64,000 nt of DNA, taken from positions 128,001-192,000 of the forward strand of contig CAVVLJ010000021.1 of NCBI GenBank assembly GCA_963749075.1, in the 5' to 3' direction. Below are positions 7,697 to 35,415 of the stretch, piece by piece. The stretch comes from an uncultured Pseudomonadota bacterium. Lineage in GTDB: Bacteria > Pseudomonadota > Alphaproteobacteria > JACZXZ01. Under the pieces are notes generated by a model that was not told the DNA's origin, searched no databases, and saw only the letters and a list, made by a program, of their open reading frames with translations. Position 1 is the stretch's first letter; each line of letters begins with the position of its first letter. Both the position numbers and the translations under genes were made by a program.

Positions 7697-8929
7697 ATGG
7701 CGCAGGCTCGATCGACGGCGGGCGAAGCGGCCCCCTCGCGCATCGCGGCGCTGATTGCGGCGCGGGAGCCCGGACGCGGCCTCGCCGGCGCCTTCTATGA
7801 TGACCCCGAGATCTACGAGCGCGACCTCGCGCGCATCTTCCACCGCCACTGGCTCTGCGCCGGCCATGCCAGCGCTGCCGCGGCACCGGGCGACTATTTC
7901 CTCGCCAACGCCGGCGGCGAGGAGATCATCGTCGCCCGCGGCCGCGACGGCGAGCTCAATGCGCTTCTCAACGTCTGCCGCCACCGCGGCTCGCGCATTT
8001 GCAGCGTGCCGGCCGGTCATGCCGACTTCTTCGTCTGCCCCTACCACGCCTGGAGCTACGCGCTCGACGGCAGCCTCGCGGCGGCGCGGCACATGCCGCA
8101 AGGCTTCGATAGGACCGCGCACGGGCTCAAGCGGCTGCATCTCCGCGTGGCCGAGGGGCTCGTCTTCGTCTCCTTCGCAAGCACGCCGCTCGATTTCACG
8201 CCGGTTGCCGGCGCGCTCAGCGGTTCCTGCGGGCGCTACGGCTGGGCTGCGGCCAAGGTGGCGCACCGCGAGCGCTACGCCATCGCGGCCAACTGGAAGC
8301 TCGCCGTCGAGAACTATGTGGAATGCTACCATTGCAGCCCGGCGCATCCCGAGTATTCGCGCCTGCATGCCCTCGAGCAGCCGCTGCCGCGCATCGCCGC
8401 CCTCAATGCGCGCATGGCCGAGCGCACCGCGGCACTCGGCATCGCGGTGGCGGAGTGCCACCAGTGGCGCACCTCCGAGCGTGGCGCCGAGGCGATCGAC
8501 TGCTTCCGCTATGCGCTCTACGAAGGTGTCGCGACCGGCAGCCCCGACGGCCGGCCGGTGGCACCGCTCATGGGCGATTTCACCGGCTATGACGGGGGTG
8601 TGACCTCCGTGCACGTCGGAGGTGCGAGCTTCCTCCTCGCCTATCCCGATCACGGCGTCGTCTACCGCTTTGCGCCCAAGGGGCCGGATGCCGTTGAGAT
8701 GGAGCTCGTCTGGCTCGTGCGCGGCGATGCCCGGGAAGGCGTCGATTACGACAAGGAGCGCCTCGTCTGGCTCTGGCAGGTGACGAGCGAGGCGGACAAG
8801 CGCATCATCGAGCGCACGGCCGAGGGCGTACGCTCGCGCTTCTTCGAGCCGGGTCCGCTGGCACCCATGGAATACAACGAGCGCCGCTACATCGAGTGGT
8901 ATCTCGCGGAGATTTCCGGTCTTATGTAG
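7697..8929 (+). CDS. Rieske non-heme iron oxygenase alpha subunit (GbcA/choline monooxygenase-like)
   Basis: CRHRG...CPYHAW Rieske motif; ENYVECYHC...H iron ligands; the stop codon lies inside the element's left end. Confidence 0.9.
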   Translation: MAQARSTAGEAAPSRIAALIAAREPGRGLAGAFYDDPEIYERDLARIFHRHWLCAGHASAAAAPGDYFLANAGGEEIIVARGRDGELNALLNVCRHRGSRICSVPAGHADFFVCPYHAWSYALDGSLAAARHMPQGFDRTAHGLKRLHLRVAEGLVFVSFASTPLDFTPVAGALSGSCGRYGWAAAKVAHRERYAIAANWKLAVENYVECYHCSPAHPEYSRLHALEQPLPRIAALNARMAERTAALGIAVAECHQWRTSERGAEAIDCFRYALYEGVATGSPDGRPVAPLMGDFTGYDGGVTSVHVGGASFLLAYPDHGVVYRFAPKGPDAVEMELVWLVRGDAREGVDYDKERLVWLWQVTSEADKRIIERTAEGVRSRFFEPGPLAPMEYNERRYIEWYLAEISGLM

Positions 8930-9069
8930 CTGACGCACCGATTGACGGCTAATTATTGCGTATAACAAGAAAAACCCGCAATAAAACTGATAAATCCTTG
9001 AAGTAGCCAAAATTCGATCCCTTAATAATCCAGTCATCAAGCATTTTCCTTAAGCACAGGAGCGCTTGA

Positions 9070-9261
9070 ATGACTGACCTAGACCCCGATCTGGCATCCG
9101 CCTTCTGCGACGCTCATTTTGAGGGATCGGCAAAGAAGGTGATGCAGGGCGCCCTGCGCACGTTCATCAAGGATCAACTATCTAGGGATTTGGCGACGAA
9201 AGAGCGATCCGACGAGCTTCAGAAAAAGCGGAATGGCGGGAAGCCAGACGGCTCGAATTGA
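9070..9261 (+). CDS. Small hypothetical protein, ribbon-helix-helix-like
   Basis: 63 aa, AGGAG upstream, helical VMQGALRTFI segment; fold call is inference. Confidence 0.5.
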   Translation: MTDLDPDLASAFCDAHFEGSAKKVMQGALRTFIKDQLSRDLATKERSDELQKKRNGGKPDGSN

Positions 9262-9510
9262 CGGTATTCGGGCACAAATGGGACCAATCCCGAGTCGCAA
9301 TCATGCTCCTGTGTGGCAGTGCCACGATCATCGGCGAACGTGTTACGGGCGTCCTGCCTGTGCCAGGCCCTTAGGAAGGCAGCCGCTAAGCGATTCAAAC
9401 GACTCGGTTTTGTTATAGAAGGCGTCTACACTGCATCGAGTCGCTTGCCCGCTTGAGGCAGAGCGCTAATTCCTCTTGCTCCTTTGATTCCGAGAGAGTA
9501 GAGAGTTGTG

Positions 9511-9526
9511 TATCAATATCTTGTGG
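9511..9526. promoter_or_regulatory. NrdR-box-like site upstream of pyrE
   Basis: TATCAATATCTTGTGG versus consensus acaCwAtATaTwGtgt (core CwATATnTwGTG matches). Confidence 0.55.
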
Positions 9527-9608
9527 TTGGGATGGGCTCCACCGCATACCCCTGGGCGACCTCGTCACGATTAGTCAGGCCTTGGGTATAAAACCTAGGG
9601 AAACGCAC

Positions 9609-10190
9609 ATGGCTCAGGTCGCCAGTAAGCCCGCTCGATTCGATCAGGACGGCCGCCGTGAGCGTCTGCGTCATATCATCGCAGATATGTGCTTCACGAC
9701 GGGGCCGACATTCCGGCTCGCCTCGGGAAGGGAAAGCAATTTCTATTTCAATCTTAAAAAGGCGATGCTCGACCCCGAGGGGATTGAGTTGTTGGCTGAT
9801 CTCATATTGGAAGAGACCGCTGGCATTCGTGCCGACTATGTGGGCGGTCTCGCAATGGGGGCAGTCCCGGTCGTCGTCGCGGTAGTTATGAAAAGCCGCG
9901 GAGGAAACCGGCCGCTGAGAGGGTTCTGGGTTCGCAAAGAGGCCAAGGGCCACGGGACTAACGACTTGACGGACGGCCATATCGTTGACGGCTCGCGAGT
10001 TATCATCGTTGATGACGTGACGACCACGGGCGGCTCTATCAAGCAGGCGATAGAGGAGGTCAAAAGGCATAACTGCGAAATCGCCGCTGTCATAACGATC
10101 GTTGATCGATTGGAGGGCGCTAAGGAAGCCCTTGCTAAGGATGGCGTCGAGCTTATTGCGCTGTATGATACGAACGATTTCCTCCCCTAA
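9609..10190 (+). CDS. pyrE: Orotate phosphoribosyltransferase (element-borne)
   Basis: FRLASGRESNFY, VRKEAKGHG loop, PRPP motif IIVDDVTTTGGS. Confidence 0.9.
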   Translation: MAQVASKPARFDQDGRRERLRHIIADMCFTTGPTFRLASGRESNFYFNLKKAMLDPEGIELLADLILEETAGIRADYVGGLAMGAVPVVVAVVMKSRGGNRPLRGFWVRKEAKGHGTNDLTDGHIVDGSRVIIVDDVTTTGGSIKQAIEEVKRHNCEIAAVITIVDRLEGAKEALAKDGVELIALYDTNDFLP

Positions 10191-10244
10191 AGGTTCACCA
10201 GAGTTTGCGGGTTCCCCCTTAAAGGGAAACGGTGACTCGTGGGG

Positions 10245-10508
10245 ATGCATAGCGACGAGATCGCGGCAATAGCAACATTCGCCCTAGAGCACTCCACCGC
10301 TTATCCTGTCCTGTCCCTCGTGCTCCTCACCGTCGTTGATCGTATCGAAAACGAATACGACGGCGGCGCTATAACAGAAGATCGAGCGGCACAGCTTGAT
10401 GAGCTTGAACCGTTGATCCGAGCTGCCATGACAGCGCCCGGTGACTTTGCGAAGTTACAAACGATTTGCAGAAAATTTATGACGGTATTCGATATTGGCG
10501 CGCACTGA
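10245..10508 (+). CDS. Hypothetical helical protein
   Basis: 87-aa ORF directly after pyrE inside the element; no family recognised. Confidence 0.55.
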   Translation: MHSDEIAAIATFALEHSTAYPVLSLVLLTVVDRIENEYDGGAITEDRAAQLDELEPLIRAAMTAPGDFAKLQTICRKFMTVFDIGAH

Positions 10509-10611
10509 GGATCCGATTCTGGACCCCGGCTAGGTGCAAGACACCCACTCCGATGCCAAGGCCGGTCCCAATGAGAAACAGAATAATGGTGAGGTCGTCG
10601 CCTTGTGGCAT
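10477..10611 (-). CDS. 44-aa single-TM small protein or truncated membrane protein
   Basis: MPQGDDLTIILFLIGTGLGIGVGVLHLAGVQNRILSARQYRIPS; AGGGGG RBS-like run upstream; below the ORF-track cutoff. Confidence 0.4.
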   Translation of the reverse strand: MPQGDDLTIILFLIGTGLGIGVGVLHLAGVQNRILSARQYRIPS

Positions 10612-10716
10612 AGCGCTACCCCCTGAGCACGCCCCTTTTGTATAGCAGGAAATGATACCGAGAATGGTGAGTCAGCTACATAAGGCCGGAAATTTCCTGA
10701 GCGCTCCCGCGTCCGC

Positions 10717-11088
10717 TCATCGCCGCTTTTTCCCTCCCGCCGGCTTCAAGTGCCTGACGAGCTCCGCGACCGTCGCCTCGGGGAGCGCGCGGATGCGCTC
10801 GGCGAGGAGATTGGCGAGCTCGGTCTTGGCGGGCGAGAGCCCGGCGGTATCGACCGTGACGCGCGGATGGGAGAGGCGGGCGAGGCCCCTCAGCTCCTCG
10901 GCATCGTCCCAATAGAGGCCGAAATAGTCGCAGATCTGGTGCACCAGGCCGTTGGCCGGCCGCCCGCGCCGGCCGTGCTCGAGGGCGGAGAGGTAGGCGG
11001 CGGAGAGCTCGAGGGAGGCCGCCATGTCGCGGAGCGTGACACCGCGCGCGAGGCGCAGCGCCCGCACCCGCTCGCCGAAGGGCGTCAT
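10717..11088 (-). CDS. XRE-family helix-turn-helix protein
   Basis: LSAAYLSALEHGRRG; typical neighbour of smr in Alphaproteobacteria. Confidence 0.88.
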   Translation of the reverse strand: MTPFGERVRALRLARGVTLRDMAASLELSAAYLSALEHGRRGRPANGLVHQICDYFGLYWDDAEELRGLARLSHPRVTVDTAGLSPAKTELANLLAERIRALPEATVAELVRHLKPAGGKKRR

Positions 11089-11103
11089 GGCTCGCCCACT
11101 ACC

Positions 11104-11670
11104 TCAGCGCTGGCGGCGCAGCAGGAGATAGAGCGCGCCCGACCCGCCGTCCCTGGGCCTGGCGGCGGCAAAGGCGAGGAGGCGGGAGCGCAAGGGGGCA
11201 CCGTTGAGCCAGCGCGGCACCGCCGCGCGCAAGATGCCCTCGCCTTCTCCGCTCCGCCCCTTGCCGGTGATCACGAGAAGGGCGCGGCAGCGCCGCCGCC
11301 AGGCCTCTTCGACGAAGGCGATGAGTGCCCGGTGCGCCTCCTCCTGGGTATGGCCGTGGAGGTCGAGCCGCGCCTCGATGGCGAGCTCGCCCTGCCGCAG
11401 CCGCTCGGCCGTGCGCTTGTCGAGGCCCGGGGCGGCATCGCGGGAGAGCTCGGGCAGCGGCTGGGGCGCCGGCAGCGTGGCCGAGCGCGGTGCCGGCGGC
11501 GCTTGGGCCGGCGCCAGCACCGCCTGGCGCTCGCGGCCGGCCGCGGGCGGGGGCGGCGGCCGCTCCCCGCGCCGGGAGAGCGGCTTGGCGTCGCGCGTGA
11601 CATGGGCCCAGAGGGCGTCGTCGTCGCCCTCGCGGCCGGGCGCGTGCGGCTCAGGCTTCGCCTTGGCCAT
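11104..11670 (-). CDS. Smr/MutS2 domain protein
   Basis: LDLHG, LVITGKG, DGGSGALY. Confidence 0.92.
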   Translation of the reverse strand: MAKAKPEPHAPGREGDDDALWAHVTRDAKPLSRRGERPPPPPAAGRERQAVLAPAQAPPAPRSATLPAPQPLPELSRDAAPGLDKRTAERLRQGELAIEARLDLHGHTQEEAHRALIAFVEEAWRRRCRALLVITGKGRSGEGEGILRAAVPRWLNGAPLRSRLLAFAAARPRDGGSGALYLLLRRQR

Positions 11671-12364
11671 CGCCACCCTCCGCCACCAGGATGATGTGGA
11701 GGCGGCGCGGCCCGTGGGCGCCCATTTGGAGCTGCTGCTCGATGTCGGCGGAGCGCGAGGGCCCGGTGATGAGATTGACGGTGCGCGGCCAGGTGCCGGG
11801 TGCCAGCACCCCGCGCAAGCGGTCCCAGGCGTCCTCGTAAGGGCCGACGATCTGCGCCTCGCGCAAGACGACGAGATGGTTGTCGGGGAGGAAATTGAGC
11901 GTGGTCGGGCTGCCGGCTCCCGAGACGAGCATGAGCGTGCCGGTTTCGGCGATGCCGGCGAAGGCCGGCGTCAGGCTCGCGCTGTCGCTCGCCCGCGCCG
12001 GGCCCGTCTCGCGCTTGAGGAGCGGCCGGCTGGACCAGGGCAGTGCCGCAATTTCCGCGTCCGAAGCCACGCGGAGCGTGGCCGGCAGGTTCTGCGCGGC
12101 GAGGAAATCGGCGACGGCAGCCGGCACGTCCGCAAGCTCACGCACGCGTGCCACCGTGGCGGCGGCCTTCTCGGCCATCTCGACGAAGAGATGCACCTGC
12201 CCGGGGTGGTCGAGCTGTGCGCGCTTGGGCACGAGGTTGCGCGCGTGCCTGCTAAGACGCGCCTCGAGGGCCGCCTTCAGCACCTTATCGCCAGCGTCAT
12301 TGCCGGCGCCCTTGCCGAGGGCGCGGCGCACGCTCGCCAGGATCTGCTCGCGCGCCTCGCTCAC
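11651..12364 (-). CDS. lutC: Lactate utilization protein C (LUD domain)
   Basis: GIAETGTL, ITGPSRSADIEQ...GAHGP; GTG start overlaps the lutB stop. Confidence 0.9.
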   Translation of the reverse strand: MSEAREQILASVRRALGKGAGNDAGDKVLKAALEARLSRHARNLVPKRAQLDHPGQVHLFVEMAEKAAATVARVRELADVPAAVADFLAAQNLPATLRVASDAEIAALPWSSRPLLKRETGPARASDSASLTPAFAGIAETGTLMLVSGAGSPTTLNFLPDNHLVVLREAQIVGPYEDAWDRLRGVLAPGTWPRTVNLITGPSRSADIEQQLQMGAHGPRRLHIILVAEGGDGQGEA

Positions 12365-13782
12365 GCTCCCTCCCCATCGTGATCGGCCGCCCACAAGGCG
12401 TGGAAGGTCGGCCCCTCGGGGCTCGGCATGTCGCGACCGGCGGTCCAGCCGCCCGCGAGCGGCAGGCGCCGGAAGCGCCCCTTGCCGCGGCCCAAGAGGC
12501 CGAGCGCCGCCATGGCCAGGCGGGCGCCCGTGTGGTAGAGGCCGGGGCGGCGGACGAACCAGGACCACAGCCTGAGGCCGAGGCGGAAGCGCTTCGGCAT
12601 GAGCCCCTTCTCGAACTCCCGCTCGCGCCAATGGCGCAGCATCTTGGGCAGCGGGATCTTCATCGGGCAGACGCTCTCGCAGCGCCCGCAGAAGGTGGAG
12701 GCGCCGGGCAGGAGGGCGCTGCTCTCGATGCCGATGATCGCCGGCGTCAAAACCGAGCCCATGGGCCCCGGATAGACCCAGCCGTAGGCGTGGCCGCCGA
12801 TCGAGGTATAGACCGGGCAATGGTTGATGCAGGCGCCGCAGCGGATGCAGCGCAGCATGTCCTGGAACTCGCCGCCGAGGAGCGCCGTGCGGCCGCCGTC
12901 GAGGATGACCACGTGATGCTCGCCCGGCCCGTCGGCGTCCTCGGGCCGGCGCGGCCCGGTCGAGAAGGTGGTGTAGACCGACATCTCCTGGCCGGTCGCC
13001 GAGCGGGCGAGGAGGCGGATGATGGTGCTGGCGTCCTCGAGCGTCGGCACCAGCTTCTCGGGCGTCGCCAGCACGATGTGGGCCTTGGGCAGCGTCTGGG
13101 TGAGGTCGCCGTTGCCCTCGTTGGTGACGATCACCGTGCTCCCCGTCTCGGCGATGAGAAAGTTGGCGCCGGTAATGCCCACGTCCGCGGCGACGAACTT
13201 GGCGCGCAGGATCTCGCGCGCCTCGGCCAGCATCTCGGCGGCGTTCCCGAGGCGGCGGTGCTTGCCGTACTGGGCGTGGTTCTCCTCGAAGCTGTCGGCG
13301 ATCTGCTCCTTGGTCAGGTGGATGGCGGGTGCTATGATGTGGCTCGGCGGCTCGTGGCGGAGCTGGATGATGTATTCGCCGAGATCCGTCTCGATCGGCG
13401 CGATGCCGTTCTTCTCGAGATGCTCGTTGATGGCGATCTCCTCGCCGATCATCGACTTGCCCTTGGTCACGGTCCTGGCACCCAGGCGCTTGCAGATGGC
13501 GAGCACGCAATCGCGCGCCTCGCCCGCCGTGCGGCACCAATGGACTTGCGAGCCGCGCTTCGCCGCCTCGGCCTCGTAGCGCTCGAGGTAGAAATCGAGG
13601 TTCTCGAGCACGTGATCCTTGATCGCGCGCGCGGCCTCGCGCAGTTTGTCGAACTCGGGCAGGCGCTCGACCGCGGCCGCGCGCGTGGCGGCGAAGCCGA
13701 GCTTCGAGATGGCGCGCTGCAGCGTGGCGTCGTTGAGGGCGCGGTGCGCGTTCTCCTTGAAGCTGGCGGTGGTCGACTCCAT
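12361..13782 (-). CDS. lutB: Lactate utilization Fe-S protein B
   Basis: ETDLGEYIIQL, NEGNGDL, CIRCGACINHCP, CGRCESVCP. Confidence 0.93.
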   Translation of the reverse strand: MESTTASFKENAHRALNDATLQRAISKLGFAATRAAAVERLPEFDKLREAARAIKDHVLENLDFYLERYEAEAAKRGSQVHWCRTAGEARDCVLAICKRLGARTVTKGKSMIGEEIAINEHLEKNGIAPIETDLGEYIIQLRHEPPSHIIAPAIHLTKEQIADSFEENHAQYGKHRRLGNAAEMLAEAREILRAKFVAADVGITGANFLIAETGSTVIVTNEGNGDLTQTLPKAHIVLATPEKLVPTLEDASTIIRLLARSATGQEMSVYTTFSTGPRRPEDADGPGEHHVVILDGGRTALLGGEFQDMLRCIRCGACINHCPVYTSIGGHAYGWVYPGPMGSVLTPAIIGIESSALLPGASTFCGRCESVCPMKIPLPKMLRHWREREFEKGLMPKRFRLGLRLWSWFVRRPGLYHTGARLAMAALGLLGRGKGRFRRLPLAGGWTAGRDMPSPEGPTFHALWAADHDGEGA

Positions 13783-13789
13783 GGCGCCC

Positions 13790-14542
13790 TCAGCGCCGCG
13801 GCACGCCGATGGCCGGCACCTCGGTCATGCCGGCGAGCACCTCGGCCACGTGGCGCACCTTGACCGCGGCACCCTCGCGCGAGAGCCGCCCTGCCATGTT
13901 GAGGAGGCAGCCGAGGTCGCCCGAGAGCAGCGTGTCGGCGCCCGTAGCCGTCACGTCCTTGGCCTTGTTCGCGGCCATGCGCGTCGAGATCTCGGGATAT
14001 TTGATGCAGAAGGTGCCGCCGAAGCCGCAGCACACTTCGGAGCCGGGCAGCTCGGCGAGGCTCAAGCCGGCGACGCTCGCGAGCAGCTTGCGCGGCTGCG
14101 CCTTGACGCCGAGCTCGCGCAGCCCCGAGCAGGAATCGTGATAGGTGACCGTGCCCTCGTAATGGGCGTCGACGGCATCGACGCCGCACACGTCGACGAG
14201 GAAGGAGACGAGCTCGTAAGTGCGCCGTGCCAGATCATGGGCGCGCTGCGCCCAGCTCGGCTCGTCGGCGAAGAGCTCGGGATAATGCACCTTGATCATG
14301 CCGGCGCAGGAGCCCGAGGGCGCCACCACGAAATCGTAAGCCTCGAAGGCGGCGATGACCTGGCGCGCGATCGCCTTGGCGTCCGCCTTGTCGCCCGAAT
14401 TGTAGGCCGGCTGGCCGCAGCAGGTCTGGGCGCGCGGCACCGCGATCTCGCAGCCCGCCTCCTCCAAGAGCTTGACCGCCGCGAAACCGACCGTGGGGCG
14501 GAAGAGATCGACGAGACAGGTGACGAAAAGCGCGACTTTCAT
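13790..14542 (-). CDS. lutA: Lactate utilization protein A (CCG domains)
   Basis: QTCCGQP, YHDSC, CCGFGGTF, DLGCL. Confidence 0.92.
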   Translation of the reverse strand: MKVALFVTCLVDLFRPTVGFAAVKLLEEAGCEIAVPRAQTCCGQPAYNSGDKADAKAIARQVIAAFEAYDFVVAPSGSCAGMIKVHYPELFADEPSWAQRAHDLARRTYELVSFLVDVCGVDAVDAHYEGTVTYHDSCSGLRELGVKAQPRKLLASVAGLSLAELPGSEVCCGFGGTFCIKYPEISTRMAANKAKDVTATGADTLLSGDLGCLLNMAGRLSREGAAVKVRHVAEVLAGMTEVPAIGVPRR

Positions 14543-14733
14543 GGCGGGCGTCCCCCGCTCGGATGAGGCCGCGGCCAGCATGAAGGCTCGGGCAAGGGAT
14601 GGCAACCCCTGTCGGGATACCCCGCTGCGGCCACGTGCAGAGCGATCGACACGTCCTGCCGAACCTCCCGGGTGCTCGCCATTAGCGAGCGCCTTTCCTT
14701 GACAGGCTGCCCCCCGATAGGGAGCATACGTCG

Positions 14734-14979
14734 GTGGCGCTGGTCATTCCACCTGACGTCGTCAAGCAATTGAAGGCGCTCTCCAAGGCGGACCGCCGGC
14801 GGTTGCTCGATGCTTTGGAAACGGTTGCGGCGGAGCCGGCCAAGCGTTTCCCTTTCGTTGCCCAGATGGCCGGGCATTCCGGCCTGTGGCGGTTGCGGAA
14901 GGGCCATTGGCGCGCGGTGTTCCGCATTCGCCACGGCGACGTCGTCCTCGACCGCGTGGGACACCGCGGAGAGATTTAG
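14734..14979 (+). CDS. RelE/ParE-family toxin
   Basis: WRLRKGHWRAVF and VGHRGEI; upstream of an HTH antitoxin; TTGACA at 14699. Confidence 0.82.
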   Translation: MALVIPPDVVKQLKALSKADRRRLLDALETVAAEPAKRFPFVAQMAGHSGLWRLRKGHWRAVFRIRHGDVVLDRVGHRGEI

Positions 14980-14981
14980 CG

Positions 14982-15734
14982 ATGAGCTCGATCAAGCCGC
15001 TTGCACAGACGAAGGACACCGTCACGCTCAGGCGGGCGGATTTTCTGGCCCTCCTCGAGACCGCCGGGGAGCGCAAGGATCTTGCGGCCGTTGCCGCGCA
15101 TCGCGCCTACGAGAGCCGCGTCGGATGGGAGCTCGCGCGGCGCAATTACCTGACGCGAAGCCAAGCAGAGCGGCTCCTCGATGGCGAGAGCCCGGTCCGC
15201 ATCTGGCGCCAGAAGCGCGGCTTCTCGCAACGCGCGCTCGCCGCGGCGGCAGGAATCGCGGCGAGCTATCTGGCGGAAATCGAGACCCTGAAGAAACCGG
15301 GCAGCAACGCCGCCCTCGTCAAGATCGCGGCCGCTTTGGAAGTTCCCCTCGAGATCGTCGCTCATTTGCCCGGCATGGCCCCGGAAGCCGGGCTGCGCCC
15401 GGTCACCCGATCTGAGGAAGCCGCGAAGCGGCTGTCGGAGCTCGCCGAGCGCGGTGCCGATCGAACGCGGATTGAGGAGGAGGTGCGTACGATCCTCTCG
15501 GAGTGGCGAGATATCGCGGAGAGGGCGGGAGCCCGCCACCAGCTGAAGGCGGCGATTTCCGCGTTGCGGGCGATTTTGACGGAGCGATCGGGCGGCTCGA
15601 CGCGGCGCGCCGAGGACAAGAAATGCGCCACGCTGCAGGTGGCGATCGAGGTCCTTCAGAACGAGCGCCGCAGCTCGCAGGGACAATTTCGCACACGCGA
15701 CGCCGCTCACTCCGTCCGCGGCAGCAGCAGGTAA
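14982..15734 (+). CDS. HTH (XRE/HigA-like) antitoxin with long C-terminal extension
   Basis: GESPVRIWRQKRGFSQRALAAAAGIAASYLAEIE HTH; 250 aa. Confidence 0.8.
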   Translation: MSSIKPLAQTKDTVTLRRADFLALLETAGERKDLAAVAAHRAYESRVGWELARRNYLTRSQAERLLDGESPVRIWRQKRGFSQRALAAAAGIAASYLAEIETLKKPGSNAALVKIAAALEVPLEIVAHLPGMAPEAGLRPVTRSEEAAKRLSELAERGADRTRIEEEVRTILSEWRDIAERAGARHQLKAAISALRAILTERSGGSTRRAEDKKCATLQVAIEVLQNERRSSQGQFRTRDAAHSVRGSSR

Positions 15735-16885: not shown

Positions 16886-16890
16886 CGGCC

Positions 16891-17574: not shown

Positions 17575-17740
17575 CGCTCTCAAGCCGCCGGTGCAAGCTG
17601 GACCGGGCGGGGCCCTTGGTCTAAAGACAGCCTATGACAATACTCGAACGGAGCCGCCGGGTACAGCGCCCCTGCGGCCGCGGCAACGGCACCCGCAGGC
17701 GCCATCCTCTAGATGGGCAGCAGCACCCCGCCCTGCAAGC

Positions 17741-18753: not shown

Positions 18754-18782
18754 GCGCAATTGCCCGCGAGGGGCAAAGCGTG

Positions 18783-18830
18783 TTAGCCACTGGGCCGCTT
18801 AGCCATTGGGCCGCTTAGCCATTGGGCCGC
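18783..18830. repeat. 3 x 16-bp tandem repeat TTAGCCA(C/T)TGGGCCGC upstream of secB
   Basis: Units at 18783, 18799 and 18815. Confidence 0.95.
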
Positions 18831-18865
18831 AGCCCGCGGCGACCGCCTGCCGGAGGAGCGCTCCC

Positions 18866-19363: not shown

Positions 19364-19382
19364 GCACCTCGCCGCCCGCCGC

Positions 19383-20054: not shown

Positions 20055-20067
20055 GGCGGTCCCCGGC

Positions 20068-20697: not shown

Positions 20698-20717
20698 GGC
20701 TCGCCCGGTGACGCGCG

Positions 20718-25178: not shown

Positions 25179-25441
25179 GGGAAGGGCGCCTGCGCCCGGG
25201 TGCCGCACCTAAGGCGAGGGCGCAATTGAGCTTTCCCGCTGTCATCCGCATTTCGCTTGACGCGAGGGCCGCTTTGCGCGATCAATCTGGCGGATCTCCT
25301 CCAGCGACTCACGGCCTGCGTCCTTCCACGAGCTTGCGCCTGGTAGCTCCGCCTGCTCGGCGGGCATTATCCGATCATCCGGCCCGGCGCAGGGCGTCCG
25401 AGCGCTTCCCCTCCCCCCGATGCGACGCGAATAGGCGCGGC

Positions 25442-26782: not shown

Positions 26783-26819
26783 GTCCGCGCGAAGCGGGCC
26801 GCACGCGCGGAGGGCGGCG

Positions 26820-28001
26820 ATGACCTCGGCGCAATCCCCCGCAGATGTGGAAGACCACCCGGTCGCCCGGCGCATCCGCCGGCCCGGGCCGAAGTACCTC
26901 CTTGCGCTCGACGGCGGCGGGCTGCGCGGCGTGGTGGCGCTTGCCTTCCTCCAGCGCATCGAGACGCTGCTGCGCGCGCGCTACGGCAACCGGCCGGACT
27001 TTCGCCTGCGCGACCACTTCGACATGATCGGGGGCACCTCGAGCGGCGCCATCATCGCGACCGGCCTGGCGCTCGGGCATTCCGTGGACGACATGCTCGC
27101 CGTCTACCGCGACTTCGGCCGGCAGGTGTTCGTGCGGCACATCTGGCGCCGCGGCCTTTTCGGCCCGCGCTTCTCGCTCAGAGCGCTCGAGGCCAATTTC
27201 CACCGCGAGCTCGGAGAGAGGACGCTCGGCACCCGGGAGATCACTTGCGCCCTCGTCCTCGTGGCCAAGCGGCTCGATACCGGCAGCGTCTGGGTGCTGC
27301 ACAACAATCCGTTCGGGCGCTATTACGGCGCGCCCAAGGACGAGCCCGCGGCGACGCCGAACAAGGATCTTCCGTTGCAGCAAATCCTGCGCGCGAGCAC
27401 CGCGGCGCCGACCTTCTTTCCCCCGGAATTCATCGAGGTGGCCAAAGGCCATTCGGGCTTCTTCGTCGACGGCGGCGCCAGCCCCTACAACAATCCGGCG
27501 CTGCTGCTCTTCCTCGTCGCCACCACGCCGTCCTACGGCTATGGCTGGCAGAGCGGCGAGCAGGCGCTCCACCTAACCTCGGTCGGAACCGGATTGGAAC
27601 GTCCGGCGCACGACGTGCGGGAGCTCCGCCACATGCCTTCCGCCCTGATGGCGACGCATGCACTGCGCTCGATCGTCGCCGATTGCAGCCGGCTGGGCCA
27701 TATGGTGCTGCAGTCCATGGCAGCCGTGCGCACGCCCTGGTCCATCGACCGGGAGGCGGGGGCGCTCGATCACGAGAAGCCGCCCGAGCGGCGGCTTCTG
27801 TCCTACGCGCGCTTCGACGTGCCGCTCGAGAGCGCGTGGATCGAAAGGGAGCTTCGCCGCCATGTGAGTGCTGCCGAGCTCGCGCCCTTGGGCGAGATCG
27901 ACAATGTCGCCGCGATCGAGCCGCTCTATCAGCTCGGTGCCGCGGCGGCCGAGCGCCTGGTGCGGCCCGATCTGCTGAGCTTCGCGGCGCCGCCCGCGTG
28001 A
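26820..28001 (+). CDS. Patatin-like phospholipase
   Basis: DGGGLRG, GTSSG nucleophile elbow, DGG. Confidence 0.9.
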   Translation: MTSAQSPADVEDHPVARRIRRPGPKYLLALDGGGLRGVVALAFLQRIETLLRARYGNRPDFRLRDHFDMIGGTSSGAIIATGLALGHSVDDMLAVYRDFGRQVFVRHIWRRGLFGPRFSLRALEANFHRELGERTLGTREITCALVLVAKRLDTGSVWVLHNNPFGRYYGAPKDEPAATPNKDLPLQQILRASTAAPTFFPPEFIEVAKGHSGFFVDGGASPYNNPALLLFLVATTPSYGYGWQSGEQALHLTSVGTGLERPAHDVRELRHMPSALMATHALRSIVADCSRLGHMVLQSMAAVRTPWSIDREAGALDHEKPPERRLLSYARFDVPLESAWIERELRRHVSAAELAPLGEIDNVAAIEPLYQLGAAAAERLVRPDLLSFAAPPA

Positions 28002-28011
28002 GTGCTGCCGC

Positions 28012-28989
28012 TTATGGGATCAGCACCGTCGAGCCCGTGGTCTTGCGCGCCTCGAGATCGCGGTGGGCCTGTGCTGCGTCGGCGAGCTTGTAGGTCTGGT
28101 TGACGCGGATCTTGACGGCGCCCGAGCGCACGGCGCGGAAGAGATCGCGCGCGGCCGCGAGGAGGTCCGCGTGCTTCGCCGCATAAGTCTGCAGCGACGG
28201 CCTTGTCAAGAAGAGCGAGCCCTTGGCGACCAGCATGCTGAGATCGAAGGGCGGCACCGGGCCCGAGGCGCTGCCGAAGCTCACCATCAGCCCCAAGGGC
28301 CTGAGGCAGTCGAGCGAGCGGACGAAGGTGTCCTTGCCGATCGAATCATAGACCACCGGCACGCCTTCGCCCTTGGTGATCTTCCTCACCGCGGCCACGA
28401 AGTCGTCGCGCGTATAGACGATCGGATGCTTGCAGCCGTTCGCCTTGGCGAGCTTGGCCTTGTCGTCCGAGCCCACCGTGCCGATGACGGTGGCGCCGAG
28501 CGACTTGGCCCATTGGCAGAGGATGAGGCCGACGCCGCCGGCCGCGGCGTGGATGAGGATGGTGTCGCCCTTCTTCACCCGGTAGGTGCGGCGGATGAGA
28601 TACTGCACGGTCATGCCCTGCAGCATCATGGCGGCACCCGTCTTGAAGTCGATCTCCTTGGGCAGCTTGAGCAGGCGCTCGGCCGGCATCACGCGCGCCT
28701 CCGCATAGGCGCCGAGCGGCCCCTGGCCGTAGGCCACGCGGTCGCCGGCCTTGATCTCCTTGACCCTGGGACCGACCTTCTCGACGATGCCGGCACCCTC
28801 GTAGCCGATGCCGCAAGGGTAGGCGGGCTGCTTATAGAGTCCGCTCCGGATATAGCAGTCGACGAAGTTGAGGCCGACCGCGTGGTTGCGCACGAGCGCC
28901 TCGCCCGGGCCCGGCTCCGGCAGCGCGAGGTTCTCCAGCCTGAGCACCTCGGGCCCGCCGGGCTGGCTGATGCGGATGGTCTCGACCAT
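28012..28989 (-). CDS. qor: NADPH:quinone oxidoreductase (MDR family)
   Basis: HAAAGGVG, YDSIGKDT, KGSLFLTRP, TTGSTVL. Confidence 0.9.
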   Translation of the reverse strand: MVETIRISQPGGPEVLRLENLALPEPGPGEALVRNHAVGLNFVDCYIRSGLYKQPAYPCGIGYEGAGIVEKVGPRVKEIKAGDRVAYGQGPLGAYAEARVMPAERLLKLPKEIDFKTGAAMMLQGMTVQYLIRRTYRVKKGDTILIHAAAGGVGLILCQWAKSLGATVIGTVGSDDKAKLAKANGCKHPIVYTRDDFVAAVRKITKGEGVPVVYDSIGKDTFVRSLDCLRPLGLMVSFGSASGPVPPFDLSMLVAKGSLFLTRPSLQTYAAKHADLLAAARDLFRAVRSGAVKIRVNQTYKLADAAQAHRDLEARKTTGSTVLIP

Positions 28990-29029
28990 GGTCTCGCTCC
29001 CTTTCCCGATTGCTATTCGCTCCGGCGCC

Positions 29030-29725
29030 TCAAGCGAGGTGAGCCTTGAAGAAATCCGCGCTGCGCTTGTTGGCGAGCTCGGCCGCCGCCTTGTCGAAGT
29101 GCTGGCCGCCGGGCCGCGCGAAGGCATGCTCCATGCCGTCGTAGACATGGATGGTCACCTTCGCATTGCCGGCGAGGCCGCTCCTGATCTTGGCCTGGGC
29201 CTCGGGCGGGCAATAGGAGTCCTTGGCTGCGATGTGCAGCATGAGCGGCTTCTTGATGTTCCCGGCCTCCTCTAAGGCGCCCTCGATGCCGACGCCGTAG
29301 TAGCCCACGCTGGCGTCGGCGTCGGTGCGCGTGGCCATGAGGTAGGCGAGCTTGCCGCCGAGGCAATAGCCGACCGAGCCGACCTTGCCGCTCGCGCCCG
29401 GGATCGCGCGCGCATAGGCGAGCGTCGCCTTGAGGTCCTCGACGCCCTTGGCCTCGTCGAAGCCCTTGTAGAGGGCGAAGGCCTGCTGCCACTCGGCCTC
29501 GGTGCGGTCGCTGATCTGGATGCCCGGCTCCTGGCGCCAGAAGAGGTCGGGGCAGATGGCGAAGGCGCCGGCGCCGGCCAAGCGGTCGCACACGTCGCGC
29601 ATCACCCGGTTGACGCCGAAGATCTCCTGGCACACGACGATGCCGGGTCCCTTGCCGGAGGCGGGCTTGGCGAGATAGGCGGTGAATTGGCCGCCGTCGC
29701 TGGCGGCGATCGTCACGTCGGGCAT
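29030..29725 (-). CDS. Dienelactone hydrolase family protein
   Basis: QEIFGVN, GYCLGG, HAFAR. Confidence 0.92.
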   Translation of the reverse strand: MPDVTIAASDGGQFTAYLAKPASGKGPGIVVCQEIFGVNRVMRDVCDRLAGAGAFAICPDLFWRQEPGIQISDRTEAEWQQAFALYKGFDEAKGVEDLKATLAYARAIPGASGKVGSVGYCLGGKLAYLMATRTDADASVGYYGVGIEGALEEAGNIKKPLMLHIAAKDSYCPPEAQAKIRSGLAGNAKVTIHVYDGMEHAFARPGGQHFDKAAAELANKRSADFFKAHLA

Positions 29726-29810
29726 GACCCCTCCTGTCGGGCGGGAGCTTTCTACGGAAGTGCGCTTGTCCGTGCTCGCCGCGCGAGAGTAGCGCGGGGA
29801 ATGCCGCTTG

Positions 29811-30249
29811 TCACGGGGACGCCTCCGGCAGATCCGGGTTCTCGAGCTCCAAGAGGCGGCGCTTGATGGCGATCCCGGCGCCGCCTGAATAGCCGCCGAT
29901 GCCGCCCACCGCAACCACCCGGTGGCAGGGGATGATGATGGGGATGGGATTGCGCCCGCAGGCGCCGCCCACGGCGCGCGGCACGCTGCCGATGCGCGCG
30001 GCGAGCTCGCGATAGGTGCTGAGCGTGCCGTAGGGAATGGCGAGGAGGGCCTGCCAGAGGCGGCGCTGGAACGGCGTGCCCTCGGGCTCAAGCCGCAATG
30101 CGAACTCGCGCCTCAGGCCGGCGAAGTAGCCGCCGAGCTGGGCCGCCGCCTCGGCGAGGAGCGGCGTCGCATCCTCGCCGCCGGCGCCGCCGAAGTCGAG
30201 CGCCACGATGGCGCCGCGGCGCTCGCTCACGGTGAGCGGCCCGAGCGGG

Positions 30250-30272
<23 letters not shown>
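29811..30272 (-). CDS. ogt: Methylated-DNA-[protein]-cysteine S-methyltransferase
   Basis: GTPFQ, RAVG, IPCHRV. Confidence 0.93.
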
Positions 30273-32304
<2,032 letters not shown>

Positions 32305-32443
32305 GGTCGCTTGCAAATAGCGCCTCGCCGGGGCCGCGGCAACCGCTGCCGCGCAATTTGCCGCGCGCGCCGCCGCGGCGTAGGCTTGGCCCCGGCGGAA
32401 GGCCGTGGCGCGTCCGGCCGCGGCAGGTGCTTCGGGGGAGCCC

Positions 32444-32695
32444 ATGAAGATCAAGATCGACATCGACTGCACGCCGCTCGAGGCGCGGAGCTTCTTCGGC
32501 CTGCCCAACGTCGGCCCCATCCAGGCAGCACTCCTCGGCGACATGGAGCAGCGCATGCGCTCCGCACTCGCCACCATGGACCCCGAGGCCATGATGAAGA
32601 TGTGGCTGCCCGCGGGCATGCAGGGGCTCGAGCAGCTGCAGAAGTTCTTCTGGTCCCAGGGTGCCGGCGGCGGCCCGGAGCGCAAGGGGAAATAG
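32444..32695 (+). CDS. Small conserved protein (DUF6489-like)
   Basis: MKIKIDIDCTPLEARSFFGLP signature. Confidence 0.8.
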   Translation: MKIKIDIDCTPLEARSFFGLPNVGPIQAALLGDMEQRMRSALATMDPEAMMKMWLPAGMQGLEQLQKFFWSQGAGGGPERKGK

Positions 32696-32732
32696 CGCGC
32701 CAGGGGGGGATAGGCGGCGGGAGCGGGCCCGC

Positions 32733-34076
32733 ATGGCCGAGGAGCGGGATACCATCTTCGCCCTCTCGTCGGCGCCGGGACGCGCTGCGATCGCGGTCGT
32801 GCGGGTGAGCGGCCCGCGGGCCGGGGAGGCGCTGGTCCGCTTGCGCGGCGGCCGCAGCCTGCCCAAGCCGCGCGCGGCGGCCTACGCGCGCTTTCTCGAC
32901 CCCGCGAGCGGTGCGCCACTCGACGACGGCCTGGCCCTCTGGTTTCCGGCCCCTTCGAGCGAGACCGGCGAGGACGTGGCCGAGCTCCAGATCCACGGCG
33001 GCCGGGCGACCGTGGCGGGCGTCCTCGAGGCCCTCGCCAGGCTCCCCGGCTTCCGCCCGGCCGCGGCCGGCGAGTTCACCCGCCGCGCCTTCGAGAACGG
33101 CAAGCTCGACTTGACCGCGGTCGAGGGCCTTGCCGATCTGGTGGCGGCCGAGACCGAGGCTCAGCGCCTCCAGGCCCTGCGCCAGCTCCGCGGCGAGCTC
33201 GGCCGCCTCTACGAGGGCTGGCGCGAGCGGCTGCTCCGCCTCCTGGCCCACGGCGAGGCGGCGATCGATTTTCCCGACGAGAGTGCGGGGGAGGGGCTCG
33301 ATCGCGAGCGCTACGGCAAAGTCGCCCTGCTCGCCGGGGAGATAGCACAGCACCTCGCGGCACCGCGCCGCGGCGAGACCCTGCGCGACGGCCTCTCGCT
33401 CGCCATCCTGGGCGCCCCCAACGTGGGCAAGTCGAGCCTCATGAACGCGCTCGCCCGGCGCGACGTGGCGATCGTCTCGGAGCGCGCCGGCACCACGCGC
33501 GACGTGATCGAGGTGCATCTCGACCTCGCGGGCTACCCCGTGGTGCTGGCCAACACCGCGGGCCTGCGCGAGGCCCGCGACGAGATCGAGATGGAGGGCG
33601 TGCGCCGCGCGCGGGCGCGGGCGGAGCAGGCCAACCTGCGCATCGTCATGCTCGATGCCACGCAGTGGCCGGCGCTGCCGGCCGAGGTGGCGCCGCTCGT
33701 GGGCGAGGGCAGCCTCCTCGTCCTCAACAAGATCGACAAGCTGCGCCCGCCGCCGCCCCTCGAGATCGCGGGCCGCACGGTACTCGCCATCTCGGCGCTC
33801 ACCGGCGAGGGGATCGAGGAGCTGGTGCGGGCACTCGCGACGCTGGCCGCCGAGCGCATGGCGCTTCCCGAGGCACCCGCGCTCACCCGCCTCCGCCACC
33901 GCCAGGCCCTCGAGCGCTGCCGCGAGGCCCTTGAGCGCGCCCTCCGCGCCCCCTTGCCCGAGCTCGCCGTCGAGGACCTCCGCCTCGCCATGCGCGAGCT
34001 CGGCCGCATCACCGGCCGCGTCGACGTGGAGGACCTCCTCGACGTGATCTTTCGGGAGTTTTGTATTGGGAAGTAG
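32733..34076 (+). CDS. mnmE: tRNA modification GTPase
   Basis: TGED, GEFTRRAF, GAPNVGKSS, GTTRD, NKID, FCIGK; G3 motif reads NTAG instead of DTAG. Confidence 0.95.
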   Translation: MAEERDTIFALSSAPGRAAIAVVRVSGPRAGEALVRLRGGRSLPKPRAAAYARFLDPASGAPLDDGLALWFPAPSSETGEDVAELQIHGGRATVAGVLEALARLPGFRPAAAGEFTRRAFENGKLDLTAVEGLADLVAAETEAQRLQALRQLRGELGRLYEGWRERLLRLLAHGEAAIDFPDESAGEGLDRERYGKVALLAGEIAQHLAAPRRGETLRDGLSLAILGAPNVGKSSLMNALARRDVAIVSERAGTTRDVIEVHLDLAGYPVVLANTAGLREARDEIEMEGVRRARARAEQANLRIVMLDATQWPALPAEVAPLVGEGSLLVLNKIDKLRPPPPLEIAGRTVLAISALTGEGIEELVRALATLAAERMALPEAPALTRLRHRQALERCREALERALRAPLPELAVEDLRLAMRELGRITGRVDVEDLLDVIFREFCIGK

Positions 34077-34077
34077 G

Positions 34078-34100
34078 CGGTATTAGGTAGCAAACTCACC
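34078..34100 (+). mobile_element. Solo IS1595-family (ISNha5-like) terminal repeat opening the dcd cassette
   Basis: CGGTATTAGGTAGCAAACTCACC shares CGGnnTTAnGTAGCnnACnCACC with both ends of the 8917-10688 element; sits at the composition boundary; partner end not found. Confidence 0.75.
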
Positions 34101-34131
34101 TATCGTGAAAATTTGACCCTACAATAGAACA

Positions 34132-34686
34132 TTAAGGCGCGGCGGATTGCCCTTGAAACTGTCCGTACCCCTTTTCTGGAGTCCCGAAGGTCTGCTCAAA
34201 AATTAATTGGCAAATTCGCATACCTGGTTTTAGACGCACGGGCCGATGGCCATGGTTGACTATCTCCAGTCTTATTCGCCCTTCAAAGCCAGCATGTATC
34301 GTTGGGGCCGTCATGTGGATAGAAAGACCTATCCGCGCCAATGAGCTTCTCCCTTCAACTCGGGCCGCCAACCGAGATTCCTTTAGGTCGATGTACTCCT
34401 TCGTCCACGCAAGGATCATTGTGTGACGGGTCAATGGATAGCCGGCTTGCGGATCGATCGAAAAACTTGTTGTCAACTCCTTGACGACGACATCGCTTTT
34501 GAAATCAGCGTGTGTCGGGTCAATTATCATGTCGATCCCGGATGCAACCTCCTTGAAAAGGCTGATGTCGGGATCAAGCGTTAAGTCAATGCTCGACGAC
34601 TGGTACGCGACTTGCGGAGGGCGCGGCTCGACGGTTATCAGCCCCCGCTCAATGTAAATCTTGATTTCTCGATCCGTCAGGATCAC
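34132..34686 (-). CDS. dcd: dCTP deaminase (trimeric dUTPase fold)
   Basis: MILTDREI, SIDLTL, EGRSSLARIGL, GFEGRIRLEIVN, RICQLIFE. Confidence 0.9.
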   Translation of the reverse strand: MILTDREIKIYIERGLITVEPRPPQVAYQSSSIDLTLDPDISLFKEVASGIDMIIDPTHADFKSDVVVKELTTSFSIDPQAGYPLTRHTMILAWTKEYIDLKESRLAARVEGRSSLARIGLSIHMTAPTIHAGFEGRIRLEIVNHGHRPVRLKPGMRICQLIFEQTFGTPEKGYGQFQGQSAAP

Positions 34687-34940
34687 GCAGCAGCTTCCTC
34701 GACATCACTCCGGCGAACCCATATTCGCCAGCTTCCCCGAAGACTCTCGCGCGGCAATTCAACGAGAAGTTCGTCCGTTCCGCGAGCGCTGATTGGATAG
34801 CCTATCTTAACGCTATTGTCGGTTATTGACCGCCTGTCAACGATCAATTCTTCCGTTTTGCCATCCGCGGTGGTTACTGCGACCACCGCCTCACTCGGGT
34901 GCTGACCGTTACCAACGGTTCTGATTTTGAGTCGCGCCAT
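34683..34940 (-). CDS. Hypothetical beta-rich protein coupled to dcd
   Basis: 85 aa; GGGAGG upstream; stop overlaps the dcd GTG (GTGA); motifs HPSE, ELPRES, GSWRIWV. Confidence 0.75.
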   Translation of the reverse strand: MARLKIRTVGNGQHPSEAVVAVTTADGKTEELIVDRRSITDNSVKIGYPISARGTDELLVELPRESLRGSWRIWVRRSDVEEAAA

Positions 34941-35038
34941 GAGCTTAGCCCTCCCAGAACTTTTGCCGAACAAATTACCTGCGTTAGCCGAAAAAGGCGA
35001 CTCGGAATCCGATGCCCTTGTGTCTGGTCAACGCCGAT

Positions 35039-35054
35039 ACACTATATTTTGTGT
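35039..35054. promoter_or_regulatory. NrdR-box-like site upstream of the orf85-dcd operon
   Basis: ACACTATATTTTGTGT, 15/16 match to acaCwAtATaTwGtgt. Confidence 0.7.
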
Positions 35055-35139
35055 GCGAGCGCCGCCTATCGTCAACACAATTGTCGCATCGTTTTCACCT
35101 TATTTGTCATGATGACGATCTGCTAATGTCCTCAATGGG

Positions 35140-35415
35140 ATGGCTCGAAAAAATAATCGTATTCCGACAAAAACGACGACAATTACCCTAGCCTGGCCGC
35201 TATATGCGTACCTTGATAGGGCGATTGTTTTGGGGCGATATGGCGCAACACTGACCTCGGCCGCGGAGGTCGCCATTGATAAACACATTGGGTGGCTGAT
35301 CTCGGCTGGCAAAATTACGGAGTTGACCGCAGCCGAATTAGCCGCGCCGCCGTCATCGGATTATGTGCGAAAAAAGCGGAAGCCACGAACCAAGAAAACC
35401 GCCGCTTCCAGTTAG
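35140..35415 (+). CDS. Small hypothetical protein, ribbon-helix-helix-like, basic tail
   Basis: Beta-like TTTITL then helices LYAYLDRAIV and LTSAAEVAI; divergent from orf85-dcd; fold is inference. Confidence 0.6.
   Translation: MARKNNRIPTKTTTITLAWPLYAYLDRAIVLGRYGATLTSAAEVAIDKHIGWLISAGKITELTAAELAAPPSSDYVRKKRKPRTKKTAASS

Follow-up and report, generated by a model that had tools for sequence, protein, structure and literature searches.

On a contig from an uncultured alphaproteobacterium, two islets of low GC content lie about 25 kb apart, each with an extra gene for a pyrimidine-nucleotide enzyme, and this raises the question of how these genes arrived and what controls them. The contig is CAVVLJ010000021.1 of GenBank assembly GCA_963749075.1; the stretch that was analyzed, called the window below, covers its positions 128,001 to 192,000 (64,000 nucleotides, numbered here from 1). 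Islet 1 encodes a phosphoribosyltransferase (PRTase) of the orotate phosphoribosyltransferase (OPRT) type, and islet 2 encodes a dCTP deaminase (Dcd) together with a small protein that we call B2. A first-pass annotation had proposed that both are interchangeable mobile cargo wired to the repressor NrdR. The reading favored here is that the islets are the remains of an IS1595-type element, that the mobile cargo includes an SOS-induced dCTP deaminase with a partner subunit, and that NrdR has no demonstrable part. We put the probability of this reading at about 70%, a figure that covers the element remains and the LexA-controlled B2-dcd pair with its partner jointly.

The GC content of the window is 0.686 (~69%), against 0.538 for islet 1 (8917-10688, 1772 bp) and 0.532 for islet 2 (34078-35742, 1665 bp), and the AT-richer islands of the first description are therefore real. 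The end motif CGGnnTTAnGTAGCnnACnCACC is present, as had been noticed, at 8917 (+), 10666-10688 (–), and 34078 (+), with no match in 100 shuffles. Across the 5.49-Mb assembly, the 23-nt end pattern occurs in just these three copies, all in the window, and its control has 0 matches. An 18-nt shorter version with one mismatch allowed returned the identical three sites in the assembly, plus two control matches.

By its junctions, islet 1 is a complete, transposase-less cassette inserted in the last codons of a Rieske oxygenase gene. The left 8-bp target-site duplication GAGATTTC (8909-8916) lies inside those codons and is followed by the left 23-bp terminal inverted repeat CGGTCTTATGTAGCTGACGCACC (8917-8939, +); the right inverted repeat, CGGCCTTATGTAGCTGACTCACC in the minus-strand reading (10666-10688, –), is followed by the second copy of the duplication, GAAATTTC (10689-10696). 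The inverted repeats are 21/23 identical and the duplication is 7/8 identical. An inverted-repeat search reported the ends as a 32-nt repeat of 91% identity, since the near-palindromic 8-bp duplication adjoins each 23-bp repeat. At the left junction, the Rieske gene reads into GAGATTTC/CGGTCTTATGTAG, and the right junction is CATAAGGCCG/GAAATTTC-CTGAGCG. Empty sites were found in four relatives, where the gene ends without an insert as YL(S/R/K/G)EIA-stop (GAAAT(T/C)GC(C/T)TGA); the insertion gives the oxygenase a new tail, EISGLM. The inverted repeats and the duplication at the junctions, compared with the empty sites, define islet 1 as a bounded cassette.

Islet 2 begins 1 nt past the stop codon of mnmE with the terminal repeat CGGTATTAGGTAGCAAACTCACC (34078-34100, +), which is 22/23 identical to the commonest form of the repeat in the class-wide sample described below. 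Its right border is an older relic that resembles an inverted repeat, CGATATTATCGCGCAAACGCCAC (35743-35765, +). This relic directly follows mnmE in same-genus relatives, and the window aligns from 35743 on with the post-mnmE sequence of one of them (G005), so that the insert was taken to be 34078-35742. All five same-genus relatives have a decayed end motif at the same place beside mnmE, with differing sequence behind it. The 62-aa ORF B4 (35792-35980, –) lies in sequence that the relatives share downstream of mnmE, and it is therefore, on this comparison, resident sequence outside the insert. The insert may have entered by insertion beside an older end of the same kind or by recombination with it.

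The origin of these ends became apparent from other genomes. A degenerate 23-nt exact pattern was used to scan 401 genomes sampled from the class, with the reversed pattern as the control. The motif was found in 11 of the 401 genomes, with 17 matches outside the genome studied here against 3 for the reversed control. In a separate scan of 11 genomes from the family, 2 contained it. Four complete elements were recovered, each flanked by a perfect 8-bp target duplication: L106 (genome G173, 3737 bp, ACATATCC), L107 (genome G164, CAAATCTG), L033 from an Acetobacteraceae metagenome-assembled genome (4363 bp, AACGCTTC, in a comM-like gene), and L114 on a metagenome contig (~4.1 kb, CCTCGCGG). Their ends read CGGnnTTA... 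and form 23-bp inverted repeats around variable passenger genes. The transposase of L106 matches PF12762 (DDE_Tnp_IS1595) at 140 bits and the zinc ribbon PF12760; the intact elements also share a DUF6471 gene and an accessory ORF of ~145 aa adjoining one end. The assignment of the window ends to the IS1595 family, first made from the letters, is thus borne out by elements with the same type of repeat. The idea of interchangeable nucleotide cargo holds in part: the L114 element carries a homolog of the islet-1 PRTase (48% identity) and the L033 element carries B2-dcd, but such cargo is the exception and not the rule.

The ends of ISNha5 read CGGnnTT. Mobile insertion cassettes (MICs) are elements of this kind that have no transposase. 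According to PMC8101967 and PMC11891212, a zinc finger and target duplications of 8 bp are features of the IS1595 family, and ISNha5 is a "transporter IS", one that carries passenger genes; the reference for this type is Siguier, Gagnevin and Chandler 2009, as cited in PMC11891212. Compared on the basis of this family description, the elements found here share with transporter IS of the ISNha5/ISNwi1+ type and with MICs the inverted repeats that begin CGGnnTT and the 8-bp duplication, and their relatives have a zinc-ribbon and DDE transposase and passengers. They differ in that no transposase is encoded in the window copies, a single end is left in islet 2, and the cargo consists of pyrimidine-nucleotide enzymes; in the intact relatives, the transposase is accompanied by the conserved ~145-aa ORF and the DUF6471 gene. 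Neither islet has a transposase gene, yet one is present in relatives with the same ends, and the window copies are therefore read as non-autonomous derivatives of an IS1595-family element. Both islets are most likely remnants of one type of mobile element, an IS1595-family transporter IS. The collective evidence documents an IS1595-type transporter group, and a transposase-less derivative of it, moving metabolic genes among soil Alphaproteobacteria.

Several observations on these elements are recorded here in their own right. The flanks of the L033 transposon (1-1019 and 5391-5555), translated and judged by eye, belong to a comM/YifB-like Mg-chelatase gene, which the element interrupts. A different IS1595-type transposase gene, with 27-29% identity to that of L106, splits or displaces the dcd beside B2 in L056 and L057. 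On a contig from a viral collection (L146, 5357-5802), IS1595-type transposase fragments (41-51% identity) lie directly 5' of B2-dcd in the same order as in L033, and no matching inverted repeats were found there. The same-genus genome G005 has a solo inverted repeat (C317:1530-1552, L108/L149) that is 21/23 identical to the islet-1 end; a tRNA-Pro gene lies at a distance of ~120 nt. Together with a degenerate inverted partner ~690 nt away, this repeat forms a decayed miniature element without cargo.

The enzyme of islet 2 is a Dcd of 184 aa encoded at 34132-34686 (–). It matches TIGR02274 at 131.6 bits (cutoff 92.8), and its GRSSLAR motif and the catalytic Glu of RLEIVN align with those of E. 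coli Dcd (1xs1), which agrees with the earlier reading of an intact deaminase. The PRTase of islet 1 (193 aa, 9609-10190, +) matches the pyrE profile TIGR00336 at 140.9 bits (cutoff 106.8), as the pyrE call had implied; its identity as an OPRT rests on this profile, and among its 2417 homologs, those with a source name are all called OPRT. Neither islet enzyme is the only one of its kind, and both are extra copies: a second pyrE is located at C20:683010, a second small dcd (C23:72674-73204) is preceded by its own B2 in a pair at C23:72414-73204 beside an insertion sequence (IS), and the genome also has a two-domain DCD on C17 and a dut gene. The islet-2 Dcd belongs to the same family as the housekeeping dCTP deaminases (E. 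coli Dcd, 1xs1; the bifunctional Dcd-Dut of M. jannaschii, 1ogh), with similar length and conserved catalytic motifs; it differs in its obligatory small upstream partner gene, its SOS box, and its presence as an extra copy beside the two-domain DCD.

The partner gene encodes B2, an all-beta protein of 85 aa (34683-34940, –) from an unannotated family, and its stop codon overlaps the dcd start as GTGA. No match to B2 was found in Pfam, NCBIfam, PADLOC, or PHROG. A word-indexed search nevertheless returned 46 clusters of relatives, and among 1.84 billion proteins, 395 representatives were obtained at E ≤ 0.001 (194 at E ≤ 1e-10); an alignment of 21 sequences has 22 invariant columns. In 39 of 42 genome loci, B2 has a dcd homolog behind it in the same orientation. 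The homolog is directly adjacent in 36 of these (apparently frameshifted in 7), reduced to a 35-residue fragment in 1, and interrupted by other IS1595-type transposase genes in 2; the three remaining loci comprise one that ends with its contig and two without a dcd. Apart from the pair itself, the 42 loci have no conserved neighbors. B2 was not found in any of the 30 relatives searched (5 of the same genus, 5 more of the family, and 20 of the class). The predicted structure of B2 (pLDDT 92.6) had no match in the PDB at E ≤ 0.001, the best having E 0.056 with TM scores of 0.2-0.36. Among the proteins with a B2 domain, one also has an NT5C deoxynucleotidase domain (PF06941, E 3.3e-10) in a fusion, and another is fused to HEAT repeats; the NT5C fusion suggests that the B2 domain is tied to deoxynucleotide catabolism more generally. 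B2-like domains were also seen as tandem duplicates (P0168/P0170, 181-186 aa), and P0307 (1972 aa) has 16 B2-like repeats plus HycA_repressor-like segments.

What controls this pair? The sequence GTTC-N7-GTTC is given as the Caulobacter and alphaproteobacterial SOS operator in Table 1 of PMC9578287 (citing da Rocha et al. 2008) and in PMC12700426. An exact copy, GTTCGGCAAAAGTTC, lies at 34957-34971 (–), 17-31 nt before the ATG of B2, and abuts a GGGAGGG ribosome-binding site. When the upstream regions of B2 were read side by side, the same motif was seen nearly everywhere. Counts were made for the 41 B2 loci with usable sequence, in the 250 nt upstream of B2, with the rest of the same loci as the background. 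The exact box was present in 25 of the 41 (background 0.0088 per 250 nt), and a box within one mismatch in 37 (background 0.12 per 250 nt). Its position (–29 to –212) and orientation vary among subgroups whose upstream regions cannot otherwise be aligned, which is better explained by selection than by common ancestry alone. The genome itself has 53 exact boxes in 5.49 Mb, including the one in islet 2, one at the B2-dcd copy on C23, and one 60 nt upstream of lexA; an exact box is also found upstream of recA. Judged from these upstream regions, it is a LexA box and not an NrdR box that has been conserved as the control element of the dcd cassette, which would place B2-dcd under LexA repression. 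With the core alphaproteobacterial LexA regulon, the pair shares an exact operator in its leader, conserved in homologous loci and also present at lexA and recA of the same genome; it differs in being accessory and mobile. Among open-access papers, searched without supplementary regulon tables, no description was found of an SOS- or LexA-controlled dCTP deaminase or of a B2-like SOS gene. The PRTase cassette differs from this pattern: no LexA box within one mismatch and no DnaA box was found in islet 1, nor any regulator site for the PRTase.

In one subgroup of B2-dcd loci (L025, L027, L031, L032, and L034), the LexA box and a GTTGAC –35-like element flank the sequence TGTGGATAA, which is found ~90-110 nt 5' of B2. 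It is a perfect complement of the DnaA box and hints at additional, replication-linked control.

The earlier proposal held that the cassettes are wired to NrdR, such that this ATP/dATP-sensing repressor would bind at 9511 and 35039 and release pyrE and dcd when dNTP pools are disturbed. The 16-mers on which it was built, TATCAATATCTTGTGG at 9511-9526 (98 nt 5' of the PRTase start) and ACACTATATTTTGTGT at 35039-35054 (in the divergent intergenic region between B2 and B3), are indeed there, each with all 6 key positions. The genome has an nrdR gene, the 35039 box is its best match to the NrdR-box consensus (1 mismatch), and a similar sequence, ACACTATAGGTAGTGG, lies upstream of the second B2-dcd copy on C23. 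At C20:4483 there is a tandem pair that looks genuine, and its box 1 is similar to the 9511 box. However, an NrdR site, as described in PMC13584703, consists of two 16-bp boxes 15-16 bp apart, with crucial spacing and key positions C4, A6, A8, T9, T11, and G13. The islet boxes are single: no partner with at least 5/6 key positions was found within 60 nt of either, and their best partner candidates, with linkers of 4, 19, or 40 nt, occur at background frequency. Neither islet is among the 40 NrdR box pairs found in the genome, whereas single 16-mers with 6/6 key positions number 718 genome-wide, which puts the 9511 box at chance level. The 35039 box overlaps the predicted –10 hexamer of a minus-strand promoter.

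The boxes are also not conserved upstream of homologous cassettes. A box within three mismatches was found in 1 of 41 homologous dcd loci, and none was seen at the closest PRTase homologs (L111 and L112, best 7 mismatches). A further point in favor of NrdR comes from the nine closest loci (L016-L024), in which GCACTATGCGTTGTGT is accompanied by a second CAC...TTGCG element 15-17 nt upstream. These paired elements have 3-4/6 key positions each, against 5-6/6 at the ribonucleotide reductase (RNR) genes of the same genomes, and NrdR control of this subgroup is unlikely. Compared with the NrdR regulon, each islet has a 6/6 16-mer in a genome with nrdR, but these 16-mers are single, do not stand at RNR genes, and are not conserved. 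No paper linking NrdR to the control of dcd was found among open-access papers judged by title. We regard the NrdR wiring of the cassettes as very improbable, and the case shows that NrdR control should not be deduced from one isolated box, even a near-perfect one.

Elsewhere in the genome, positions C20:4483-4528 contain a near-perfect tandem site of the NrdR type (TATCAATATATTGTGT, 14 nt, CGACAATATGTTGTGT), far from either of the RNR genes detected with PF02867. Upstream of nrdJ there is a convincing box pair (C4:494775-494822), one of the 40 pairs counted above, and a third, single box (C4:494503) ~270 nt nearer to the gene; the core and flank of this third box (TCAATATCTAGCGGTTGG) resemble the islet-1 sequence at 9511.

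The favored reading, a LexA-controlled Dcd with a partner subunit, includes a physical contact between the two proteins, and binding of B2 to Dcd is predicted. The complex prediction, for which alignments of both chains were supplied, reached a score of 0.63, against 0.00 for the best of three controls; a score of 0.63 was reached by 58 of 80 solved complexes and by 2 of 110 mismatched pairs. The prediction runs share at least 83% of contacts, with a partner pLDDT of at least 88. Residues 12-17 of B2, the invariant motif GQHPSE, are part of the predicted interface; in the model, this motif touches Dcd residues 38-42, 92-98, 133-137, and 171-175. Residues 133-137 stand just before the catalytic Glu, and 171-175 belong to the C-terminal segment, which closes the active site in known Dcd structures.

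From these features, a mechanism can be proposed. LexA would keep the B2-dcd operon off, and DNA damage, through RecA-stimulated cleavage of LexA, would turn it on. Dcd would then deaminate dCTP to dUTP (or to dUMP, if the enzyme is bifunctional), which would lower dCTP and feed the dUMP/dTTP branch. B2 would be made in step with Dcd by translational coupling, bind next to the active-site loop and the C-terminal lid, and modulate, probably restrain, the enzyme. The physiological outcome may be either a rebalancing of pools for repair or a defense- or toxin-like drain of dCTP. The mobile, patchy, self-contained two-gene architecture speaks for the latter, as does the known antiphage use of dCTP deaminases (PMC13276650); the missing PADLOC match and the housekeeping-like enzyme speak against it. 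An SOS-linked B2-dcd would add a nucleotide-pool enzyme and an unannotated partner to the alphaproteobacterial SOS response and would link damage signaling to the dCTP/dTTP balance.

A number of observations weigh against the favored reading. Islet 2 has no right-hand inverted repeat (best inverted candidate 13/23) and no target duplication. Of the 42 B2 loci, 1 (L033) lies inside an element bounded by the inverted repeats, and at the ends sampled in 10 other genomes of the class, no PRTase, Dcd, or B2 was found within 1.5 kb, so that nucleotide enzymes must be regarded as occasional cargo. Nine of the 37 loci counted with a LexA box have it as GTTT-N7-GTTC only (at –29 to –33), 4 of the 41 have no box within one mismatch, and the homologous loci are kin, which means that these counts are not independent. 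The geometry of repression is unclear, since the window's LexA box is part of the 5' leader, by the ribosome-binding site and ~75 nt downstream of the only sigma-70-like promoter found by scan. The complex was modeled as 1:1 though dCTP deaminases are trimeric, and the surface predicted to bind B2 could coincide with a contact between trimer subunits. In the best 150 of the 395 representatives, B2-Dcd fusions were not seen. The public sequencing runs that contain the stretch are four soil-metagenome DNA runs from one study, with no RNA run listed.

These points leave room for other explanations of the function. B2-Dcd could be a toxin-antitoxin-like or antiphage abortive module in which Dcd would arrest growth by depleting dCTP and flooding the cell with dUTP, B2 would act as stoichiometric inhibitor or sensor, and firing would follow SOS or the loss of B2, for example upon phage attack or prophage induction. 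In favor of this, the unit consists of just two overlapping genes, with the small gene in first place, and has no conserved neighbors; its distribution is patchy, with horizontal movement (B2 was not found in any of 30 relatives, has two copies here, and was met once on a transposon). Also in favor are the tight interface predicted at the active-site loop and lid and the fusion of a B2 domain to another enzyme of dNMP/dNTP catabolism, NT5C. Against such a module, the dCTP deaminases known from defense are fused proteins of much greater length. The islet-2 Dcd is of housekeeping size with an intact, housekeeping-like sequence and matches 0 PADLOC families, no adjoining defense genes were recognized, and B2 has no DNA-binding or antitoxin family signature. 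Deamination of dCTP is an established antiphage effector activity according to PMC13276650, which cites Tal et al. 2022. With that defense, B2-dcd has in common the chemistry and the accessory, horizontally moving genes; it differs in having no PADLOC match, a short single-domain enzyme, two genes with B2, and a LexA box instead of an unknown infection trigger. No two-gene dCTP-deaminase defense was found described in open-access papers. We consider an abortive module unlikely, though a serious possibility.

Two further explanations concern the provenance and the present state of the islets. The module could be phage or prophage cargo, a phage dCTP deaminase with an accessory protein, switched by LexA in the lytic cycle to supply dUMP/dTTP and later stranded as a remnant. 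Five loci from a viral-contig collection encode B2 (3 with a full dcd, 2 with an exact LexA box), the Dcd and the islet-1 PRTase match PHROG families, and one Atlas cluster lists Uroviricota among its few members with a record. However, no phage structural or integrase genes were found among the ORFs of either islet, PHROG contains no match to B2, phage-like neighbors are not shared among the 42 genome loci, and the viral contigs may be prophage calls with host DNA; we rate a phage origin as very unlikely. Alternatively, the islets could be inert debris, decaying transposon cargo with leftover boxes and without current function or regulation. Consistent with decay, the window has no transposase and the IS1595-type transposases of the assembly, which is 96% complete, are distant (30-32% identical only); islet 2 is truncated, A3 of islet 1 is an orphan, and 7 dcd homologs in other loci appear frameshifted. 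Against this, both enzymes are full length with catalytic motifs and exceed curated cutoffs, B2 retains its invariant columns, and lineages that differ in the position of the LexA box have nevertheless kept it. As for the frameshifted copies, many are from metagenome bins assembled from long reads, in which, we infer, indel errors are common. Inert debris is quite improbable.

A broader proposal is that B2 stands for a family, new to annotation, of small all-beta proteins that act as regulators or sensors and gate enzymes of deoxynucleotide catabolism, with B2-Dcd as a LexA-controlled mobile "dNTP-pool switch". We offer this tentatively and regard it as rather unlikely. If it were true, the switch would collapse dCTP and raise dUTP on DNA damage or on phage or prophage activity, which would abort the replication of an invader or reshape repair and mutagenesis, and IS1595-type transporter elements would be one vehicle for it. 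Apart from this proposal, the accessory, patchy, and sometimes transposon-borne B2-dcd is a candidate dNTP-depletion defense or toxin-like system with a known trigger, unlike the known antiphage dCTP deaminases.

The remaining frames of the islets are small. The first-pass annotation had paired each enzyme with a small ribbon-helix-helix (RHH)-like ORF and a partner of 85-87 aa; these ORFs exist, but a common pair does not, since the small ORFs of the two islets have no similarity to each other. In islet 1, A1 (63 aa, 9070-9261, +) has no Pfam, NCBIfam, or PHROG match, a negligible PADLOC match (E 0.022), and one weak paralog-like match elsewhere on the contig. The orphan A3 (87-89 aa, 10239-10508, +) retrieved only itself among 5.8 billion sequences and has no match in Pfam, NCBIfam, PADLOC, or PHROG. 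A 44-aa hydrophobic ORF of uncertain status (10477-10611, –), without a Pfam or NCBIfam match, is possibly a small membrane peptide. The PRTase itself has weak PADLOC matches only (E 7.8e-5 to PRTase_III-A across 68 residues). In islet 2, B3 (91 aa, 35140-35415, +) is divergent from B2-dcd and is possibly a small DNA-binding protein. Its single-sequence model has a pLDDT of 56 with helices at 19-34 and 41-55, and the Atlas lead is weak (one cluster, 11% of members with RHH_1). No RHH profile in Pfam or NCBIfam matched A1 or B3, no PADLOC or PHROG match was found for B3, and B3 is not conserved beside other B2-dcd modules. An open frame of 88-89 aa without a start codon (35456-35722, –) was compared with the C-terminal half of the ~145-aa accessory protein of the transposons; the E values of 0.067 and 0.024, from single comparisons, are not significant. 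An Rfam scan of 8500-36800 gave no hit at the gathering score.

The surroundings of the PRTase gene vary as well. Its closest homologs (L111 and L112, metagenome contigs, 66% identity) sit in a low-GC islet that starts, by eye, right past the 3' end of an apparent tRNA gene, which would suggest an integrase-type vehicle. In the window, a gene for an XRE-type regulator (10717-11088, –) abuts islet 1, and in the same-genus genome G002 (L062), ~1.3 kb of other sequence separates the Rieske and XRE genes, so that members of the genus differ at this intergenic site. Between the relic region beside islet 2 and the next gene, 12 consecutive G residues (36338-36349) may be a slippage-prone tract or an assembly artifact.

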